The translations under genes and the position numbers were made by a program. Shown piece after piece: positions 22,949 through 31,979 of a stretch of 32,423 nt of DNA; position 1 is the first letter of the stretch, and each line of letters begins with the position of its first letter. This DNA is from a virus. Its lineage: Duplodnaviria; Heunggongvirae; Uroviricota; Caudoviricetes. Under the pieces are notes generated by a model. The model saw only the letters and a list, made by a program, of their open reading frames with translations. It had not been told where the DNA came from and did not search any database. The stretch lies in IMG/VR virus record IMGVR_UViG_3300045988_079407; one strand, given 5' to 3'.

Positions 22949-23000
22949 GTTGCCCTCCTGTCATGAACGTTTTATCGTCACAACAGAATATTGAGGGCGT

Positions 23001-23030
23001 AAAAAAAGCCGGATTAACCGGCTTTACTGT
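23001..23030 (-). terminator. Intrinsic terminator right after mor (early transcript terminator, t9.2-like)
   Basis: 8-bp stem aaagccgg / ccggcttt with loop attaa; on the minus strand it is followed by a run of seven U. It lies about 9.3 kb from the left end. Confidence 0.65.
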
Positions 23031-23420
23031 TTAAAACAAAGGGGGGGAATACTGACGATACTTTATACGCCGCATTCGTCGGATGGCTTTATAGACTGTG
23101 TTAAATGTCACACCATGACGGATTGCCAGTTCGTGAACATTGCGACCGTTGAAATCATTCCAGATACGCAAATCCCGAATCAGCGAATCCAGAACCTGAC
23201 CGCGTGGAATGTAGACCTGACCGCCGCCCAGATGCTTACAGATAGCCACAACAATCTCCAGTGAATGGGCCGGATCAACACCTAACCGGGACAATTCCCC
23301 GCGCAGTAAATCGTTCAGCTCCGCCAGCAGTGCCGGAAAGCGTGACGCATCCTCTGCGGGATTGTCAAGATGTGCCAGGATGGTGTCATCCTGCAAATCA
23401 CCAAATAAATCTTCCGTCAT
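23031..23420 (-). CDS. mor: Middle operon regulator Mor (129 aa)
   Basis: 129 aa, Mor/C family; last gene of the early operon, just upstream of the terminator. Confidence 0.85.
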   Translation of the reverse strand: MTEDLFGDLQDDTILAHLDNPAEDASRFPALLAELNDLLRGELSRLGVDPAHSLEIVVAICKHLGGGQVYIPRGQVLDSLIRDLRIWNDFNGRNVHELAIRHGVTFNTVYKAIRRMRRIKYRQYSPPLF

Positions 23421-23968
23421 TGTGCCATCCTCCGTGTCTTTCTGGCATGGGCATAAGCCGCCGTCATGGCATCATAGCCGCGCAGTTCACGACCGGACGG
23501 ACTGACCGGCAATGGAAGCCCGTGACGGGAAAAGGCTTCACGAATACAGCGGATGTGCCACTGCTTGAGTGTTTCGAGGACTGTCAGCAGCGTGTCGCCA
23601 TGACACCACGCCAGTGTGGAAACGCCCTGTCCGCCGTTGCGTTTCGCGGTCAGGCGCTGAACATATTTATCCAGCGCCACATCACCGCCATCGGTAATAA
23701 AACCGTCTTCTGCCATCTGCTGCCAGATTTTATACACCTTCTCGCGGGGTGTGACATGTTCCTTAAAGCGGCGACGGGGGTATTTATTCAGCTTCTTAAA
23801 GCCGCGTTCTTTCATGGCATCGAGCACCTGTTCCAGTTGCGTAACCGTAAGCTCGCGGCAACTGATTTTGCCCGTTTTCTGCATCAGAAAAGCGCGGTAA
23901 GTGTCGTCGTCGAGTTGTAGCTCCCGACGGGCGACATGGATTAATTTAATCAGGGATGTGCGACTCAT
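23417..23968 (-). CDS. gemA: GemA-like protein (Mu gp16-like, 183 aa)
   Basis: ATG at 23968 (MSRTSLIKLIHVARREL) with a GGAGG Shine-Dalgarno 7 nt upstream; overlaps the mor start by 4 nt. The 264-aa track ORF is an upstream extension. Confidence 0.75.
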   Translation of the reverse strand: MSRTSLIKLIHVARRELQLDDDTYRAFLMQKTGKISCRELTVTQLEQVLDAMKERGFKKLNKYPRRRFKEHVTPREKVYKIWQQMAEDGFITDGGDVALDKYVQRLTAKRNGGQGVSTLAWCHGDTLLTVLETLKQWHIRCIREAFSRHGLPLPVSPSGRELRGYDAMTAAYAHARKTRRMAQ

Positions 23969-24037
23969 GATCGTACCTCCGGAAAGAGGCGGTGCTGCAA
24001 CACCGCCATATTCAGTAATAACATAAAAGGAAATATT

Positions 24038-24397
24038 ATGGCTGAACAAGAACAACATACAGTGTCGGATGATGAACAAAACCCAGATTTCGAAACAAAC
24101 CAGAAAGACACCCCTGTTAATAACCAGGATAAATTCTTTGGTATAACCGGTTTTATGCTGGTCGGTAATCTGATGATTAAGCTGATTGAAAACGGTGTTA
24201 TCAACATGCACGATGCTTATGACATCATCAGAAATACACAGGCCAGCTATAAGAACCGAAAAACGTTCGAAGAACTGGATTTTGAGGCCGATGAGTATGT
24301 TGATCTGCTGCTCAATAAGCTCTGGGCTTCAAGGCAGGATATTGTTAATGCCGGGAACCTCTCATCAGAGCACACAGATACTGACGCTGTGGAATAA
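24038..24397 (+). CDS. Hypothetical acidic protein (119 aa), opposite strand to the early operon; candidate moron
   Basis: ATG at 24038 with AAAGGA 7-8 nt upstream; strongly acidic with one hydrophobic stretch (FFGITGFMLVGNLMIKLI); about 40% G+C by hand count over the first 60 nt. The only plus-strand ORF here that does not overlap a confident minus-strand gene over most of its length. Confidence 0.5.
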   Translation: MAEQEQHTVSDDEQNPDFETNQKDTPVNNQDKFFGITGFMLVGNLMIKLIENGVINMHDAYDIIRNTQASYKNRKTFEELDFEADEYVDLLLNKLWASRQDIVNAGNLSSEHTDTDAVE

Positions 24398-24635
24398 CCG
24401 CTGAATCATCAACGCCAAGCTCACGACAAACAATATTGTTGTGGGCTTTTTTGTTATGCAACAAAACTTCGTCGCGTATGAGATGAATTTCCCGTGTCAT
24501 AATTTCAAGGGCCTCTCTCGCAGAAAAGCCTTTACTGATTGCAGTCTCAATAACATCGCGCATACGCTCAAGCATCTTAGCTTTCACCAGTTCTTCATCC
24601 AGGTCTTTAGGCGTAAATTTAGTTTCATTATTCAT
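24345..24635 (-). CDS. Hypothetical early protein (96 aa from the ATG at 24635)
   Basis: ATG (MNNETKF) with an AAGGTG Shine-Dalgarno; the upstream stop sits 2 nt away; helical charged protein. Its 3' end overlaps the plus-strand ORF by 53 nt. Confidence 0.5.
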   Translation of the reverse strand: MNNETKFTPKDLDEELVKAKMLERMRDVIETAISKGFSAREALEIMTREIHLIRDEVLLHNKKAHNNIVCRELGVDDSAVIPQRQYLCALMRGSRH

Positions 24636-24636
24636 A

Positions 24637-24819
24637 TTATTCACCTTCACAATTCATGCACGCCGTGTCATCGCCCATATCGCAGTGGTTGCATTTCTGC
24701 CCGCCACAATGAGGGCACTCTTTCAGATATTCAGGGGATTCATTACCGCAGGTCGGGCATTCCTGTTTCACCGTGGTAAATTTCCCCAGCCACGAATACG
24801 ATGTTTCATTGTTTTCCAT
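24637..24819 (-). CDS. Small zinc-ribbon protein (60 aa)
   Basis: CPTC ... CPHC ... CNHC ... CMNC, eight Cys in 60 aa; start overlaps the upstream gene. Confidence 0.5.
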   Translation of the reverse strand: MENNETSYSWLGKFTTVKQECPTCGNESPEYLKECPHCGGQKCNHCDMGDDTACMNCEGE

Positions 24820-25336
24820 TGTTTACCTCCGCCTGTTTTTGCGCCCGGATAAATTCGTCAGAAAGGATTTCAGTCATGCGGCCTTGCGCGGGTGTCATCC
24901 CCGTCATGACGTAAATCACATCACCAACACGGAACCACTGGAGCGGCCCGAATATTGTTGCGCTGAAATCCAGTCCCAGTGCGGGTAAAAGAGCGTCTGT
25001 GCGGGCGTAAGTGACCGGAATATTCTCCTGCCATATTTTCGCCAGCTCTCTTGCCTGCTCCCTGAGATGAGCAGGTATTCGCGAAGTTCTGGGCCTGCAA
25101 CTGTTACCTGATGCGGGCCGTTGTACGGTCCACAGCTCCCGCGAGAAGGGGCGCTCATTCCCCGGAAAATTCACGCCATGAAAATGACGCCCACCAATAC
25201 CTGTGCTGAATACTGACCGGCAACCACAACCCAGAACCTTATCAAGATGGCGGGCTTCTTCGCGTAGTTTCAGACAGTTCGCCATAAACTGGTCCCACGC
25301 CAGCAGTGCTGCGGGATTTGACGTTTTAAAAAACAT
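24806..25336 (-). CDS. Hypothetical early protein (176 aa from the ATG at 25336)
   Basis: The internal ATG (MFFKTSNPAALL) coincides with the stop of the upstream gene; the track's 189-aa form overlaps that gene by 40 nt. Confidence 0.55.
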   Translation of the reverse strand: MFFKTSNPAALLAWDQFMANCLKLREEARHLDKVLGCGCRSVFSTGIGGRHFHGVNFPGNERPFSRELWTVQRPASGNSCRPRTSRIPAHLREQARELAKIWQENIPVTYARTDALLPALGLDFSATIFGPLQWFRVGDVIYVMTGMTPAQGRMTEILSDEFIRAQKQAEVNNGKQ

Positions 25337-25866
25337 CACGCCACCTCCTGCACCGCTGCGGGAGCCGGAGAACAATCAAGAATGAGATAACGCAGTACAT
25401 GGTCGGTGATATTCCAGGCGCTTGAACTGCAAATAAAACGCCCCAGCCGGATATCGATATAAGCCATCACAAAACGGGGCATTCCCTGTTCGCACATTCT
25501 GTTATCCACCTCAGCAACAATGTGGACTGACTCACAGGTCAGCACGCCCGTCGCAAACTCTTTTGCCAGCGCGGGGATGGTATTACCTTCCACCCAGGGT
25601 AATGAGCGACGCCAGTTACACCACACCGCATCATCAACAGCAGGCTGCTCAGTTGCGTTTCGTCTTACAGGCGGCGTCGGACGCGGGCGCGGAACGTCAT
25701 AAAATCCGTTGCATTCGGTGAGCACTCCGGCATCAACCGCATCACGCAGGAAATACACCATTGACGAGGGCAGCATATTCATTTTTTCAGCCAGAACCCC
25801 GCAGGTCAGGCGTCCGTAAGCCCGTAATAATGCGCTGACACCATTCAGAATTTTTGCATCAACCAT
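25336..25866 (-). CDS. Hypothetical early protein with a winged-helix-like N-terminus (176 aa)
   Basis: ORF in the track; first gene after the AT-rich gap that follows gam. Confidence 0.55.
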   Translation of the reverse strand: MVDAKILNGVSALLRAYGRLTCGVLAEKMNMLPSSMVYFLRDAVDAGVLTECNGFYDVPRPRPTPPVRRNATEQPAVDDAVWCNWRRSLPWVEGNTIPALAKEFATGVLTCESVHIVAEVDNRMCEQGMPRFVMAYIDIRLGRFICSSSAWNITDHVLRYLILDCSPAPAAVQEVA

Positions 25867-25964: not shown

Positions 25965-26489
25965 TTAAATACCGGCTTCCTGTTCAAACGGAATAATGGA
26001 AAAATCTTCAATTCCCGATTTAACCGTAATTCCGGCAACACCTGCGACGGCTTTTGGTTCCAGTAAAATCGCCTCCTTGTTGATTTCCTGCTTCGTGCGA
26101 ATAAAGCGTTGCAGGCCAAGACGCTCCAGCGTTTCCATCACTGCATCCATACCACGAATACTTACTGATGGTGGACGGACCCGCCACGATACATCACCGG
26201 TGACAAGATTCGCCGTCTTCACTTTGCCGCCGCTCGTCAGTTCGTCGCGGTTCGCTTCACACCATCCCTGAACGCCTTTTGAAAGGGTTTCAATATCGGT
26301 TTTAATCGGTGCAATCCGGGCCGCAAATTTCTCCGTAATTTCCGCGATGGCATCATTCATTTCCGTTTCCAGACGTGATGCTTCGCGCTGTAAATCCCCG
26401 ATGCGTTTAATATCGGTAATCACCGCATCGCGGTTTTGTGGCACATAAGCCGCTGCGGCGCTTTTGATACGTTTTGCTGGTTTAGCCAT
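25965..26489 (-). CDS. gam: Host-nuclease inhibitor Gam (174 aa, DNA end-binding)
   Basis: 174 aa with a coiled-coil N-terminal half (GDLQREASRLETEMNDAIAEITEKF); size and position match Mu Gam. Confidence 0.85.
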   Translation of the reverse strand: MAKPAKRIKSAAAAYVPQNRDAVITDIKRIGDLQREASRLETEMNDAIAEITEKFAARIAPIKTDIETLSKGVQGWCEANRDELTSGGKVKTANLVTGDVSWRVRPPSVSIRGMDAVMETLERLGLQRFIRTKQEINKEAILLEPKAVAGVAGITVKSGIEDFSIIPFEQEAGI

Positions 26490-28982: not shown

Positions 28983-30980
28983 TTAAATGGCTTTTTTACG
29001 TCTGTTCTGTTCCAGAATATCCAGCGAATGATTCAGATATTCATCACGCTCAGTTTCGTATTCATCATCACGCTCCTGATTCTTCACTCGTTCCGTATTA
29101 CCGGAAGGCCGGAAAATGCCGACAATTCGTGATTCTGGTGCTTCAGGTTCGGCTATCTGCGGCAGCAGCTCTGCCACTTCCAGTGCATCCATTTGTTTCT
29201 GTGCCTTAATTGCTGCTTTCGTCGCAGATTTCAGTTGTTTCTGGCGGCGGCGATATTCACGGCCTGCCGCAGCATCATTAAACGCAACAGGTGCCAGACA
29301 TTCCGCTTCACAGATAAACCGACCGTCCAGGGTGTAGCAATAAACCGTGCTGTGTAACTGCTGTGGATCAAATCTGACCACAACTTTTTTCACTCCGGCA
29401 TTCATTAACGCCATGTTGTAATAAACGTTTTTCGCACCTTTAAGGGAGCCACCAACTTTAAGCGCGAACTCGCCTTTACGTGAAACGTTCACTGCCTCGG
29501 CAGGCAGTAACAGCATCCGTTTTTGCTCTTCGGTAGGCTTACGCACAATCGTTCTGGCGTATTCACGCTCAAAAACGTCATCAAACGAAAGTTTGCCTCC
29601 GCACATTTCTGTTTCACGGCCTGTTCTGGCATTGAACATCGCCACACCTTCGGCAAGGGTTTTCAGAAACAGCTCTGCATCAACAGCGCGGTCGCCATAG
29701 TTATCAGGTTTTGCCTGCGGATTAGGCCCCGTATATGCGCCAGCCAGTGCCGGATGCTTATCAACGTATTCCTCAAGCCCACCAACACCGAAAGCACGTT
29801 CAACAGGTTTTGCCTGGCCCCAGCCTTTACCGGCAACAACGCTTGTCCAGTGCATTTTCGCCCCCATCAGTAAAAACAGTCCTTTTGGATCGTCCTCTTT
29901 TACCTTAAAGCGGTAGCGATTGGGCGCGCCTCCCGTCAGCCATTTATTCGCAGCACCACGGGTGTTATCAATGGTGATGTGAAAATCCTCCGGGATACCG
30001 TAGCGAGTCACAACATCCATGAACGAGAGGCGAATTGAATCAATGTTCTCGCTCACATCGCAGCGCCAGCCCAGAATTTTTCGGGTTTTCACATCCTGCC
30101 AGAACCATGTTTTCGGACGGATCACATCACCGTTAAACCAGCGTACAAAGACGTTATGCAGATAACCGTCGCCGTTGATCCACTGCATGGCGTCCAGGTG
30201 TTCCACAGTTCGCTGCTGTGCCGGTATCAGATGCATCAGTGCATGTTCACCTTCACGACAGGCAACAACCATTGCCTCGTCCAGTTGCTGAATCCGGCGA
30301 AAGGCCGTGGCACGGGAGGGAATACTCCAGCCATGCTCGCGGGCTGCCAGTTCCAGACGCTCATAACATTTGCGGAAGGCGGGTTTTTCCGGTCGCAGAT
30401 AATCTGCAATCAGAAACTGCCAGGCATCCTCGTCAAATTCACTTTTGTGAACGTTGCGACGGGATGCACCACGTCCATCAACAAGCGCAGCCGCCCAGTC
30501 AGGCTTCGCAAACTTCTGTACCTGGTAATACTTGTCCCGCAAAGTGGATGCGCTGACCTGGTAATGCCCTGCAACGGTCGCAAAAGCCGTTTTTGTTGAA
30601 ATCCCCTGGTTCAGCATTTCGTCTGCAGCCTGAACCGCAGGCAACCATTTTTCAGCAAGTCTGCGCTGGGAATCGCTGGCGTTATCCCATTTGCTCCACA
30701 GCACCTCACGATCATAATCATGGGCTTCCAGCGTGGGGCGGGCGATTTCAAAATACCCCTGGCTTGTTTCTATTTGCTCAGATTTTAATAACAACTCAGC
30801 ACGTGCTGCCGCTGGCAGAACTGATATATGAAATTCCAAAGCCTTTGAACCCGTACGCTTGCGACGTAGTTCTGGATGATTGGCTGCAAGCTTTTCAAGA
30901 TTGCGGCGAATACTCACCTCATGTTTAGGAAAGCATGACATTCCTACGCATTCTTGCGCTGTTACCCAATGGGTTAACAT
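28983..30980 (-). CDS. A: DDE transposase MuA (665 aa from the ATG at 30980)
   Basis: ATG at 30980 ([11 protein letters not shown]) with a GGAG Shine-Dalgarno 8 nt upstream; the track's longer form starts at a TTG. The core closely matches Mu A as I recall it, but the N-terminal DNA-binding domain differs. Confidence 0.95.
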
Positions 30981-31201
30981 GATGTTTTCTCCATATACCG
31001 AGAAGGCCAAATCTGGGCTGGTTCCATATCCAAATATCTAGCAATGATTGCTTCGTATCGTGGTATATGGCAGCGAAATACGTTACGCATAGTGTCAGGC
31101 TTTAAGCCTGCCTCTCTGGATAATTGAGATAGTGTCTTCCCCTTCATACGAACAGCAGCCTTTATCTGCTCTGCGTGCCAGTCTTGGTTTTTTGCTGACA
31201 T
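30974..31201 (-). CDS. ner: Ner-like transcriptional regulator (75 aa)
   Basis: 75 aa, Ner/Nlp family (conserved IWPSRY); AAGGA Shine-Dalgarno; first gene of the early operon, divergent from the repressor. Confidence 0.85.
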
Positions 31202-31370
31202 TCTGCGATCCTTACTTTCTTAACGTTTTCGGTAACTGATACCGGCTACCGCTATCGGGAAAAACGATAGCGCAGAAAAATGCGCATTTCAAGAGCTATG
31301 CGCATTTTTATTTTAACCAATGCAAATCAAAGCATTCTGTAAAATTCTTTATATAACAGAGAGATTGAGC
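31202..31370. promoter_or_regulatory. Divergent early/repressor promoter-operator region (Pe/Pc with operators; expected site of the transposition enhancer)
   Basis: Inverted repeat cgctatcg-ggaaaa-cgatagcg (31250..31271) and two ATGCGCAT palindromes (31278..31289 as aaatgcgcattt; 31298..31305), 18 bp centre to centre; located between ner and c. Confidence 0.7.
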
Positions 31371-31979
31371 ATGACAGGTGAAAAAGAAAGCAAAAATGCA
31401 GAGCGCATTTTTATGCCATCTGAAATAATGCGTTTCAAGGAACGCCTTGAAGAGGCAATGAATGGAGAATCAAGCCGGGCGTTTGCAGCTAAGTGCGGAC
31501 TCTCTGATGGGGTTATCAGAAACTACCTGTCTGGCAAGACATACCCGTCTTTAGATCGATTAGCACAAATAGCCTACGCAACAGGGCGTCCAATAGAGTG
31601 GTTTATCCAAAGTCAGAGCATGCCAATGGTTGAGCATAAAAATACTCAAGAGAATAAAAATCCTCAACCTGACCGCAGCACATTGAAAACTAAACTGATC
31701 GCAATTGTCGAATTGTTAGAGGACAAGGAACTGCATTCTGCGATTGAGTTGTTCAGAAAGAAAGGATTTGAAGCTCTTATGCCTGAGATTTTTTCTTCCG
31801 ATGATTCCATCCAGGCTAATTTGCAAGGTATTTCGCAACAAACCTTACAAACAGCCAAAATGCTTGAATCATTACCAACAGATACTCGTAAAGAGATTTT
31901 GTCAAAGTATGGTATTTATGAACAGGAAGGTCTTGTAGCTCCTTCACAAGAACCACAAGATGTAAAAAAAGCCGTATAA
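31371..31979 (+). CDS. c: Mu-type repressor c (about 202 aa from the ATG at 31371)
   Basis: Transcribed away from the early operon. The C-terminus (KEILSKYGIYEQEGLVAPSQEPQDVKKAV) resembles the Mu repressor tail as I recall it; the N-terminal DNA-binding domain differs. Start could also be 31320 or the later MPSEIMRF. Confidence 0.8.
   Translation: MTGEKESKNAERIFMPSEIMRFKERLEEAMNGESSRAFAAKCGLSDGVIRNYLSGKTYPSLDRLAQIAYATGRPIEWFIQSQSMPMVEHKNTQENKNPQPDRSTLKTKLIAIVELLEDKELHSAIELFRKKGFEALMPEIFSSDDSIQANLQGISQQTLQTAKMLESLPTDTRKEILSKYGIYEQEGLVAPSQEPQDVKKAV

Follow-up and report, generated by a model that had tools for sequence, protein, structure and literature searches.

The window analysed here, that is the whole stretch of 32,423 nucleotides, spans the left arm of a Mu-like phage in which ner, A, gam, genes 11-14, gemA and mor are encoded on the minus strand and the repressor on the plus strand. 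Apart from the repressor, the only opposite-strand gene recognised in the window is an ORF of 119 aa, which fills the 376 bp separating the start of gemA (23968) from the stop of gene 14 (24345). One would wonder whether this ORF is a gene at all and, if so, what a phage could gain from a protein encoded against its own early operon. A sequence-only reading of the locus had proposed that it is a real gene with its own AAAGGA ribosome-binding site, a candidate moron and possibly an acidic DNA-mimic anti-restriction factor. The coordinates confirm the orientation amid the ner-mor genes and the ribosome-binding site (Table 1), and the gap of about 370 bp that had been expected if the ORF were non-coding is close to the value measured. 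In the alignment, a purine-rich site equivalent to AAAGGA is found at the same distance from the ATG in all lineages. The DNA is also AT-richer than its neighbours, as had been remarked: the GC content is 0.39-0.43 over the ORF, and 0.39-0.45 for the cassette, versus 0.52-0.57 in the flanks (gemA/mor and genes 11-12), the neighbouring gene 14 being likewise AT-rich, and the GC skew switches to positive at the ORF.

Table 1. Features around the plus-strand ORF, with positions in the window.
Feature	Position	Strand	Remarks
119-aa ORF	24038..24397	+	ATG start; D108-type member of the Mu gp15-like family (PHROG 38610)
Ribosome-binding site AAAGGA	24026..24031	+	6 nt 5' of the ORF ATG
gemA (PF06252)	23417..23968	-	start divergent from that of the ORF; ATGs 69 nt apart
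Perfect palindrome GGCGGTG-CTGCAA-CACCGCC	23988..24007		separates the start codons of gemA and the ORF
Gene 14 (96 aa, PHROG 6075)	24345..24635	-	convergent; 53-nt overlap with the ORF at the 3' ends of both (24345-24397)
Putative intrinsic terminator of the ORF	24417..24454	+	13-bp stem with two G-U pairs, then TTTTTTG
Mosaic cassette	24008..24611		D108-type and Mu sequences unalignable or strongly diverged; low GC

The length of the ORF alone is no evidence for a gene, since long spurious antisense ORFs are numerous in the window, for example one of 219 aa on the plus strand, antisense to gemA. The case for a real gene thus has to be made by comparison with relatives. With the ORF product alone as a query, a word-indexed protein search returned only a cluster of 98%-identical sequences and a peptide-pattern scan of genome contigs returned nothing; an exhaustive HMMER search was required to reach the relatives. 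One of its matches, the 606-aa sushi-repeat protein P0003, was rejected as spurious. HMMER and profile searches revealed relatives with 36-64% identity in Mu-like prophages of Klebsiella, Citrobacter and E. coli, all of which share the layout gemA (minus), ORF (plus), gene 14 (minus). In each of them the ATG lies 63-73 nt from that of gemA on the opposite strand and the 3' end overlaps gene 14, a layout also observed in L013-L025 and in 25 IMG/VR loci. The ORF product matches phrog_38610 over its full length (E 8e-83) as well as phrog_32893 (E 5e-7), and we define the Mu gp15-like family as PHROGs 38610, 32893 and 8747. Hypothetical proteins identical or 98-100% identical to the ORF product are found under RefSeq WP_021526008.1, VUD37876.1 and PHROG 38610, names that carry no assigned function; PGAP had already called such a protein in E. 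coli JCKP02, as had automatic annotation in Mu_3F6.

The +0 frame is the sole frame free of stops in all seven distinct members. Its dN/dS is 0.07-0.37, with third-position changes in excess, while the other frames give values of about 1-3.8 with the exception of the wobble-aligned antisense frame, which is interrupted by stops in five members out of seven. Homology survives at the protein level where the DNA is unalignable. Purifying selection of this kind, in lineages already saturated at their synonymous sites, argues that the protein itself matters. The sequence-only reading had left room for an ORF with no conservation signal in Mu relatives, or for a conserved minus-strand gene in the same interval; conservation is clear, and every minus-strand frame is interrupted somewhere in the family. 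Altogether, these comparisons indicate that the ORF is very probably a real small protein gene under purifying selection and a member of the gp15 family or cassette.

In Mu itself, the same slot is occupied by gp15 (Mup15, NP_050619; PHROG 8747), a protein of 88 aa encoded on the same strand, with its ATG in the same alignment column. The suggestion that the ORF could be an insertion relative to Mu and D108 does not stand, since Mu has gp15 at this very place; D108 possesses an identical ORF, in a gap left unannotated in its reference records (NC_013594, GQ357916). The Mu gene also resembles the ORF in having the gemA ATG about 69 nt away, in overlapping gene 14 convergently, in being flanked by the same hairpin and in the strand of its terminator. 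On the other hand, Mu gp15 has no counterpart of the acidic N-terminal extension of 28 residues and is close to neutral. The pairwise identity between the two proteins is about 25%, and BLASTP gives an E-value of 0.63, which is not significant. The connection is provided by intermediates and profiles. The ORF product, P0010, L052, L091 and Mu gp15 have phrog_32893 as a common match (weak for Mu gp15, E 6e-4), and L052-type proteins form a bridge, matching the gp15 profile at 3e-28 and the D108-type profile at 1e-6. Comparison of the D108-type and gp15 profiles with hhalign yields a P-value of 2.8e-4 over the core helix with a probability of 41%, and MAFFT aligns both helices of the ORF product and Mu gp15, which share the core motif (F/Y)D(I/V)AG(F/Y)..(A/G)..(M/L)(I/V).L(V/I).K(G/A)(V/I)I. 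From this transitive and profile evidence, we conclude that the ORF is very probably the D108-type allele of a family including Mu gp15, the two proteins being likely remote homologues. Literature searches returned no study of Mu gp15 or of the ORF, and no transcriptome or proteome data for the gene.

The 2022 update of the Mu record AF083977 shows an early-strand gene, Mu_54, in place of gp15. Mu_54 matches no PHROG significantly (E 0.027), and in the gp15 lineage dN/dS is lowest in the gp15 frame (0.29-0.37), against 0.47-0.6 in the Mu_54 frame, its wobble-aligned mirror; the comparative evidence does not favour Mu_54. This bears on the possibility that the interval is non-coding, or belongs to Mu_54, and that the plus-strand ORF is a chance antisense frame. 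The abundance of chance antisense ORFs in the window, the empty gap in the D108 record, the early-strand annotation in AF083977 and the failure to find a plus-strand promoter would all suit this explanation. It is already disfavoured and hardly credible in view of the frame comparisons above, of a protein homology that outlasts DNA alignability and of a terminator specific to the plus strand.

How the gene travels was examined in 80 IMG/VR gemA loci, a sample including many near-identical contigs. Of these loci, 25 contain the whole set of gp15-like gene, gene 14 and hairpin (a count that takes in L061, whose hairpin has a one-base variant), and 50 contain none of the three. Gene 14 accompanies the gp15-like gene in 25 cases out of 25, and the divergence of one follows that of the other (Spearman rho 0.76) with no correlation with GemA. 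The flanks of the mosaic cassette are near-identical between D108-type and Mu sequences, with the hairpin at one end and the first nine or so codons of gene 14 at the other. Other phages display other cargo (PHROG 585) in the same slot, or nothing. These patterns indicate that the gp15-like gene, gene 14 and the hairpin are inherited as one cassette that recombines independently of gemA. The cassette is absent from most of the gemA-bearing phages sampled. We also considered whether gene 14 and the gp15-like gene could be inverted paralogues and rejected this idea, the hhalign probability being 0.3%.

The terminator predicted downstream of the ORF is embedded in the reading frame of gene 14 (codons ..AHNNIVCRELG..). 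Its fold has a z-score of -3.8 on the plus strand; on the minus strand it is mismatched and has no U-run. It follows the ORF stop in all eight lineages examined, on the plus strand only, and its stem displays four pairs with compensatory change as well as U-G wobbles. No sigma-70 consensus site was observed on the plus strand within 3.5 kb upstream of the ORF, and promoter PWM scores on this strand were below the shuffled mean in all eight lineages; a weak or activator-dependent promoter may still exist. The hexamers TTTAAT and CATGAT within gemA codons, and the hairpin loop taken as a -35 element, were rejected as candidates, being neither conserved nor well spaced. Since no promoter rises above the shuffled background, it is from the terminator and the ribosome-binding site only that we infer independent transcription, and on these grounds the ORF probably constitutes an antisense transcription unit of its own. 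The proposal of a candidate moron is upheld as regards the ribosome-binding site, the strand-specific terminator, the low GC content, the mosaic cassette and the patchy presence; as regards the promoter, none was recognised. A search against Rfam gave only a sub-threshold sroD match, near the mor terminator.

Facing against the early promoter Pe, the ORF lies outside the Pe early transcript. Its main function could then be exerted in cis, a collision or an antisense RNA tuning Pe read-through into gemA-mor or the expression of gene 14. The locus would thereby decide when the early-to-middle switch takes place, or keep mor insulated in lysogens, and the protein would be secondary. The fixed position immediately upstream of gemA-mor, the convergent 3' overlap with gene 14 and the hairpin tied to the cassette are consistent with such a role, as is the low-level transcription from Pe and Pe* reported in lysogens (PMC3820752). 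We nevertheless consider it doubtful: purifying selection acts on the amino acids while synonymous sites are saturated, 50 of the 80 gemA loci do without the cassette and no promoter was identified.

The palindrome between the two start codons invites another explanation. It ends 19 nt 5' of the gemA ATG, just ahead of the Shine-Dalgarno sequence of that gene, and this GC-rich hairpin is confined to loci carrying the gp15-like cassette or its deletion derivatives. In AF083977, a 'semi-early' promoter for gemA is annotated across it, citing PMID 9454718. One could assume that the ORF product is a DNA-binding regulator acting on GGCGGTG-N6-CACCGCC to control gemA and itself, as a divergent regulator-target pair. 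The head-to-head arrangement with gemA, a palindrome exactly between the start codons and seen only with the cassette, and the promoter annotated across it are what such a pair would look like. This is highly improbable, given that no helix-turn-helix or other DNA-binding domain was detected in these acidic to neutral proteins, and that L032, L045 and L063, deletion derivatives which have lost the gp15-like gene, keep the hairpin. Furthermore, some lineages have the loop inverted, and in L023/L085 compensatory changes of an RNA-like kind keep the stem. The stems are perfect on both strands, and the few wobble or mismatch variants point opposite ways. The palindrome was also tried as a repeated operator and rejected, being present in a single copy in the window. 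Most simply, the hairpin would serve the early transcript: coming after some 376 nt of antisense RNA that is not translated, it would act on gemA translation as an insulator or stabiliser at the 5' side.

We then consider the protein. The sequence-only reading had counted roughly 24 Asp/Glu against 9 Lys/Arg; the count is exactly 24 versus 9, for a net charge of -15 and a pI of 4.3. On this basis, a DNA-mimic anti-restriction role had been raised, which would make it an anti-restriction or anti-defence protein of the Ocr/ArdA type, produced early in infection. The idea draws on the charge of the D108-type allele, on the small, accessory and AT-rich nature of a gene located in the semi-essential early region, and on the proximity of gene 13, which encodes a zinc ribbon with very weak Lar-like matches. 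The structural models do not lend themselves to it. AlphaFold2 (AF2) predicts a disordered acidic N-terminal tail (1-28), a helical core (29-109) and a disordered C-terminal tail, and the models of the family are all-helical with disordered tails, at pLDDT values of 56 and 67, which are low to moderate. Residues 1-28 have a net charge of -7, residues 101-119 of -5, and the conserved core of about -3. Thus 12 of the 15 excess negative charges reside in tails predicted as disordered (pLDDT below 50) that are absent or different in relatives. The net charge of the other members ranges from 0 to -7 and that of Mu gp15 is -1, so that acidity is not a family trait. The ORF product has no credible match in Pfam, NCBIfam, PADLOC or PDB sequences, and PADLOC-DB gave no match at E <= 1 for nine family members, gp15 and gene 14. 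Against the PDB, the best Foldseek E-values were 2.8-3.0, a weak test of the fold because the models are of low confidence. The comparison of sequences and folds with known anti-restriction or defence-related proteins thus revealed no similarity. Being antisense to Pe, the ORF is moreover outside the early transcript where an anti-restriction factor would be expected, and we regard the DNA-mimic proposal as very unlikely. Two matches, to CARD (E 0.16) and to CAMP-factor (E 0.049), were discarded as chance. A SHOCT-like match (PF22746, E 0.009, 16 bits for a cutoff of 27) was seen for the L052-type member only, over LVRKGLITAEEGKTILK; the ORF product itself has no SHOCT or SHOCT-like Pfam match.

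The single hydrophobic stretch that had been noticed is present, although borderline: the 19 residues of peak hydrophobicity, FFGITGFMLVGNLMIKLIE, reach 1.5 on the Kyte-Doolittle scale. This helix is the best-conserved part of the family, with values of 1.05-1.59, mostly 1.3-1.6. It could suggest a membrane-associated protein, produced from the prophage for superinfection exclusion or abortive infection, with gp14 as the escape factor. The P22 sieB/esc pair is an analogue for such an exclusion protein and its escape factor. Location on the repressor strand, strict pairing with an early-strand gene, the PHROG 585 cargo in the same slot of other phages and the opposite-strand exclusion genes known in the Pseudomonas Mu-like phage Fc02 (PMC9936078) would be in line with such a role. 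The hydrophobic run, on the other hand, extends over only about 12-15 residues, is interrupted by Asn and Lys and falls below the usual transmembrane threshold, and there is neither a signal peptide nor a PADLOC match. An activity of this kind at the membrane is thus unlikely.

The best overall explanation, to which we give a probability of roughly 0.55, is that the ORF is a moron-like accessory unit on the repressor strand. Being apparently transcribed against the Pe operon, it would be expressed mainly while Pe is silent, in lysogeny or before Pe fires, and head-on early transcription would shut it down and simultaneously switch on gene 14. Its product would have a helical core of about 80 residues, in which the best-conserved and most hydrophobic helix is followed by a 'KGVIxxxDA' turn. 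Since these elements resemble an oligomerisation or protein-binding element, action through protein-protein contacts, and not on DNA, might be expected, and gp14 may be the lytic-phase counterpart. A lysogeny-phase accessory function by protein binding is what we tentatively propose, as the least likely part of this explanation, with the odds somewhat against it. More speculatively, and with odds clearly against it, convergent transcription could drive a two-state module made up of the gp15-like gene, its partner gene 14 and the hairpin. The antisense gene would be on and gene 14 off in the lysogen; when Pe fires, head-on transcription would silence the antisense gene and gp14 would be made. 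The lysogeny-phase activity could consist in excluding incoming phages or killing them abortively, or else in restraining gemA-mor, and gp14 would be the phage's own lytic-phase antidote. The D108, Mu and Klebsiella-type alleles would then be specificity variants exchanged as a unit.

For annotation, the analysis recovers a gene that is absent from the reference D108 genome and whose Mu counterpart has been replaced by Mu_54 in AF083977. It also defines, beside the gemA-mor regulatory genes, a compact exchangeable module that should be cleanly deletable or swappable in the best-studied transposable phage. If a lysogeny-phase function with a lytic-phase partner were true, it would be a new accessory system in Mu biology; otherwise the ORF stays one more conserved hypothetical.

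Several parallels can be drawn with known systems. The ORF product is small like T7 Ocr and ArdA, and very acidic in its D108-type allele. It differs from them in showing no similarity of sequence or fold, in having its acidity in disordered, non-conserved tails and in being encoded outside the early transcript. In Fc02, the repressor strand bears small genes that overlap a gene of the early operon encoded opposite; they were shown to be expressed in the lysogen and to exclude superinfecting phages (PMC9936078). These exclusion genes adjoin the repressor, not gemA, and we saw no sequence relationship, so that Fc02 serves as an analogy only.

The closest likeness is to the morons, reportedly defined for lambdoid phages by Juhala, Hendrix and co-workers. 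The ORF departs from them in two respects: it has no recognisable promoter, and it is one half of a co-inherited convergent pair, accompanied by a hairpin at a single fixed site, and not a solitary insertion. Like a moron, it is a self-contained extra gene of atypical composition, apparently with its own terminator and patchily distributed among relatives, and its orientation would permit expression from the prophage.

The DNA is that of a Mu-like phage in reversed orientation, whose closest relative is D108. Positions 23000-25400 are 96.6% identical to D108 and 97.2% identical to Mu_3F6, both over the full length, and Mu is alignable over just 75% of this interval. The gene map below combines ORF lists with record annotations and Pfam matches. 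The 119-aa plus-strand ORF singled out by the sequence-only reading was found as described: an ATG start with AAAGGA 6 nt upstream, exactly 24 Asp/Glu against 9 Lys/Arg (pI 4.3), one hydrophobic stretch, and AT-rich DNA (GC 0.39-0.43 against 0.52-0.57 in the flanking genes) with a reversed GC skew. The gap of about 370 bp that it occupies corresponds to the 376 bp separating gemA from gene 14. Its length alone is no proof of a gene, since long chance antisense ORFs are frequent in the window (for example, 219 aa opposite gemA). The gemA frame is itself open upstream to a GTG, antisense through a hairpin and the first half of the ORF; this extension is unconserved, the frame being open for just 195 aa in Mu, and is taken to be due to chance.

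Coordinates of the features discussed (window positions unless a locus is named)
Feature	Position	Strand	Remark
sroD-like Rfam match	23000-23086	-	24 bits, gathering score 50, E 0.074
mor	23031-23420	-	
gemA	23417-23968	-	
gemA-frame extension	23417-24211	-	264 aa
hairpin	23988-24007		GGCGGTG-CTGCAA-CACCGCC
antisense ORF	24038-24397	+	119 aa
gene 14	24345-24635	-	
terminator	24417-24454	+	13-bp hairpin, two G-U pairs, then TTTTTTG
gene 13	24637-24819	-	60 aa, four CxxC motifs (zinc ribbon), PHROG 5584
gam	25965-26489	-	
transposase A	28983-31010	-	
ner	30974-31201	-	
repressor-like HTH protein	31320-31979	+	HTH_3 (Cro/C1 type), E 4e-7
Mu gp15, locus L002 (Mu record AF083977)	2540-2806	+ in locus	
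Mu_54, locus L002	2575-2742	- in locus	
mor-gemA ORF, L017	3950-4378	+ in locus	
mor-gemA ORF, L018	3981-4385	+ in locus	
mor-gemA ORF, L019 and L020	2964-3386	+ in locus	

Three features of the map call for comment. The very weak matches of gene 13 to Lar-type restriction-alleviation models (PF14354, E 0.31; phrog_6422, E 0.53) probably reflect a shared zinc-ribbon pattern. A Mu-type repressor is expected to carry a Mu-transposase-like DNA-binding domain; the repressor-like ORF at the immunity end gave no match to such a domain, and its listed start may lie upstream of the true one. The sub-threshold sroD match, which overlaps the mor terminator and middle-promoter region, is probably due to chance.

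The antisense ORF is a real, selected gene for a small helical protein, belonging to a narrow family of enterobacterial Mu-like phages. An exhaustive HMMER search returned short relatives (60-91 aa, 38-53% identity), and a profile search returned 16 clusters from Klebsiella, Citrobacter, Salmonella and E. coli, among whose members is an E. coli protein of 119 aa with 64% identity. All the genomic contexts read were Mu-like prophages with an identical layout, in which gemA lies on one strand and the small gene on the other, about 68 nt off, its 3' end convergent with a gene 14 homologue over an overlap of 40-75 nt. In a codon analysis of seven distinct members, dN/dS was 0.07-0.37 wherever dS was unsaturated, and third-position changes were in large excess. 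Outside the gene 14 overlap, the +0 frame had the lowest dN/dS and was the only one free of stops in all seven; the only other frame with a low dN/dS was the wobble-aligned mirror frame, interrupted by stops in five members. Thus, the interval holds no conserved minus-strand gene, and a plus-strand protein is under purifying selection, in agreement with the opposite-strand coding gene initially proposed.

The acidity of the ORF product had suggested a DNA-mimic anti-restriction factor. By direct count from the sequence, its net charge is -7 in the N-terminal tail, -5 in the C-terminal tail and about -3 in the core; elsewhere in the family it ranges from 0 to -7 (-1 for Mu gp15), and tail charge changes freely even between two 119-aa alleles. 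The acidity is therefore genuine but is not a family property, and a DNA-mimic role is not supported. AF2 models built with the family alignment were of low to moderate confidence (pLDDT 56 for the 119-aa protein, 67 for an 84-aa Klebsiella member, 74-86 in the first two helices of the latter). Both are all-helical, residues 1-28 and 102-119 of the longer protein being disordered, and Foldseek searches of the PDB with these low-to-moderate-confidence models found no fold match (best E 2.8-3.0). Three helices are conserved: one that is hydrophobic (F-D-I-A-G-F-L-L-A-G-N-I-M-x-K-L-V-E-K-G-V-I), a second that starts with D-A-x-D-I-I, and one at the C terminus (D-x-Y-I-D-x-L-F-x-K-L-W). The hydrophobic run is neither long nor apolar enough to be called a membrane span with confidence. 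In one relative, the K-G-L-I-T-A-E-E-G turn gives a SHOCT-like match below threshold, a hint of oligomerization. A role as DNA-binding regulator is unlikely.

D108 (NC_013594, GQ357916) encodes an identical protein in an unannotated interval, and the protein appears as hypothetical in Mu_3F6 (VUD37876) and in the PGAP annotation of E. coli JCKP02 (WP_021526008). It corresponds to PHROG 38610 (E 8e-83). This D108-type allele is rare. Of 50,697 phage records, three have it, namely Mu_3F6 and two of D108; it is also present in one genome among 5,426 complete ones of E. coli and in two contigs from IMG/VR. Our literature search found no publication on the ORF or on Mu gp15. The ORF is a new, rare and reference-unannotated member of a family already catalogued and uncharacterized. 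In Mu, the DNA of the interval is unalignable, yet the same alignment column holds the ATG of an 88-aa ORF on the same strand, annotated Mup15/gp15 in RefSeq NC_000929. The ORF therefore replaces Mu gp15 as an alternative allele and is not an insertion relative to Mu, a point that the sequence-only reading had proposed to check.

Direct evidence linking the two proteins is weak: BLASTP gave nothing significant, hhalign of the two family alignments gave P = 2.8e-4 with a probability of 41%, pairing FDIAGFLLAGNIMIKLVEKGVIDMRDA with YDVAGYAIASALVRLLVKKAIITAEEG, and MAFFT aligned both the N-terminal and C-terminal helices. The transitive evidence is better. Over equivalent residues, phrog_32893 matched the ORF (5e-7), the protein P0010 (9e-11), an L091-type (8e-23) and an L052-type (1e-7) protein and Mu gp15 (6e-4), and the L052-type proteins bridge the gp15 (3e-28) and D108-type (1e-6) profiles. 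Because of these matches, and of the same position, strand, partner gene, hairpin and terminator, homology with gp15 is likely, though not proven. RefSeq and GenBank conflict here, since the updated GenBank AF083977, an update acknowledged in PMC9239132, has instead Mu_54, a 55-aa ORF on the early strand. Against the 66%-identical L052/L056 sequences, the gp15 frame had the lowest dN/dS (0.29-0.37, versus 0.47-0.6 for Mu_54, its mirror frame), Mu_54 had no significant PHROG match, and a terminator, listed in AF083977 as a TransTermHP hit inside Mu_14, follows gp15 on the gp15 strand. The evidence thus favours gp15 as the Mu gene.

The gp15-like gene is always paired with gene 14 and with a GC-rich hairpin upstream of gemA. 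Among 80 IMG/VR loci fetched via GemA and scanned with the two gene profiles and the hairpin pattern, 24 had all three parts, as did L061 with a one-base variant hairpin, and 50 had none; gene 14 and hairpin only were found in L045 (gp15 deletion), and the hairpin only in four loci, L032 and L063 (apparent deletions) and L098 and L104 (degenerate form). This cassette is exchanged as a whole, independently of gemA. In pairwise comparisons of eight lineages, the identity of the gp15-like protein correlates with that of gp14 (Spearman 0.76; pairs are non-independent and the p-value nominal), and GemA identity correlates with neither (-0.09 and 0.17). Between the window and Mu, GemA is 98% identical, gp14 38% and the gp15-like protein 25%. 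Since the D108/Mu divergence spans 24008, just past the hairpin, to about codon 9 of gene 14 (~24611), the exchange unit is the antisense gene plus most of gene 14, about 600 bp of low-GC DNA. That the two genes are paralogues was considered and rejected; no Pfam, PADLOC or PDB relative was found for either.

Natural deletions show that the cassette is dispensable in at least three contigs: L045 has lost gp15 and kept gp14, L063 has lost both, as has L032, where the first five gp15 codons are fused to sequence antisense to gene 13. In 11 loci (L027-L029, L043, L044, L046, L047, L049, L050, L055, L069), the same slot holds, in the same orientation, an unrelated 134-138-aa protein (PHROG 585, E 3e-31; weak DUF2513 match, E 0.017), its ATG 30 nt from that of gemA on the opposite strand, without gene 14 or hairpin. 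The slot thus looks like a hotspot for opposite-strand cargo. Some Mu-like prophages also have, in the mor-gemA interval, a second ORF on the opposite strand (134-142 aa), with no Pfam or PADLOC match except a sub-threshold EACC1 hit (E 0.013) for the L018 protein.

The hairpin (7-8 bp stem), present once in the window, was also found in L013-L025 and 29 IMG/VR loci. It lies directly 5' of the gemA Shine-Dalgarno sequence, its end 17-21 nt upstream of the ATG, and the early strand continues with a pyrimidine-rich tract and GGAGG. Its stem is kept through double compensatory changes in a Citrobacter-type lineage (GGCGGCT...AGCCGCC), and its loop is variable, inverted in some lineages. In AF083977, the annotation places a 'semi-early promoter' over this site. 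The hairpin is restricted to cassette loci or their deletion derivatives. Because L032, L045 and L063 retain it, and it occurs exactly where a long untranslated antisense stretch precedes gemA, the most economical inference would be a function in the early transcript, that of a weak attenuator or of an insulator/stabilizer helping de novo initiation at the Shine-Dalgarno sequence of gemA.

In addition to its own ribosome-binding site, the ORF has a strand-specific terminator, 20 nt past its stop, whose plus-strand RNA fold has z = -3.8; the minus strand gives an interrupted stem without U-run. In each of the eight lineages examined, of which Mu is one, an equivalent hairpin with T-rich tail lies 20-90 nt past the stop, on the plus strand only. 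Its stem is made of gene 14 codons (..AHNNIV / CRELG..), and pairing is kept by compensatory changes at four pairs and U-G wobbles. Among the indirect evidence for a plus-strand transcription unit, this predicted terminator carries the most weight. Consensus and PWM scans (the latter in eight lineages) found no sigma-70-like promoter above shuffled background.

Together with the cassette structure and the evidence favouring gp15 over Mu_54, the terminator is among the most useful new facts. We infer that the ORF is a moron-like accessory unit on the repressor strand, which retains the moron part of the initial proposal. The gp15-like gene would be expressed when the early promoter Pe is quiet; head-on early transcription would silence it and simultaneously express gene 14, and its product would act by protein-protein contacts. 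A cis-acting transcriptional role of the antisense gene may coexist with this, but cannot be the whole story because selection acts on the protein. The nearest analogy is with Pseudomonas phage Fc02, whose opposite-strand exclusion genes are expressed in the lysogen (PMC9936078), although these are located elsewhere in the genome.
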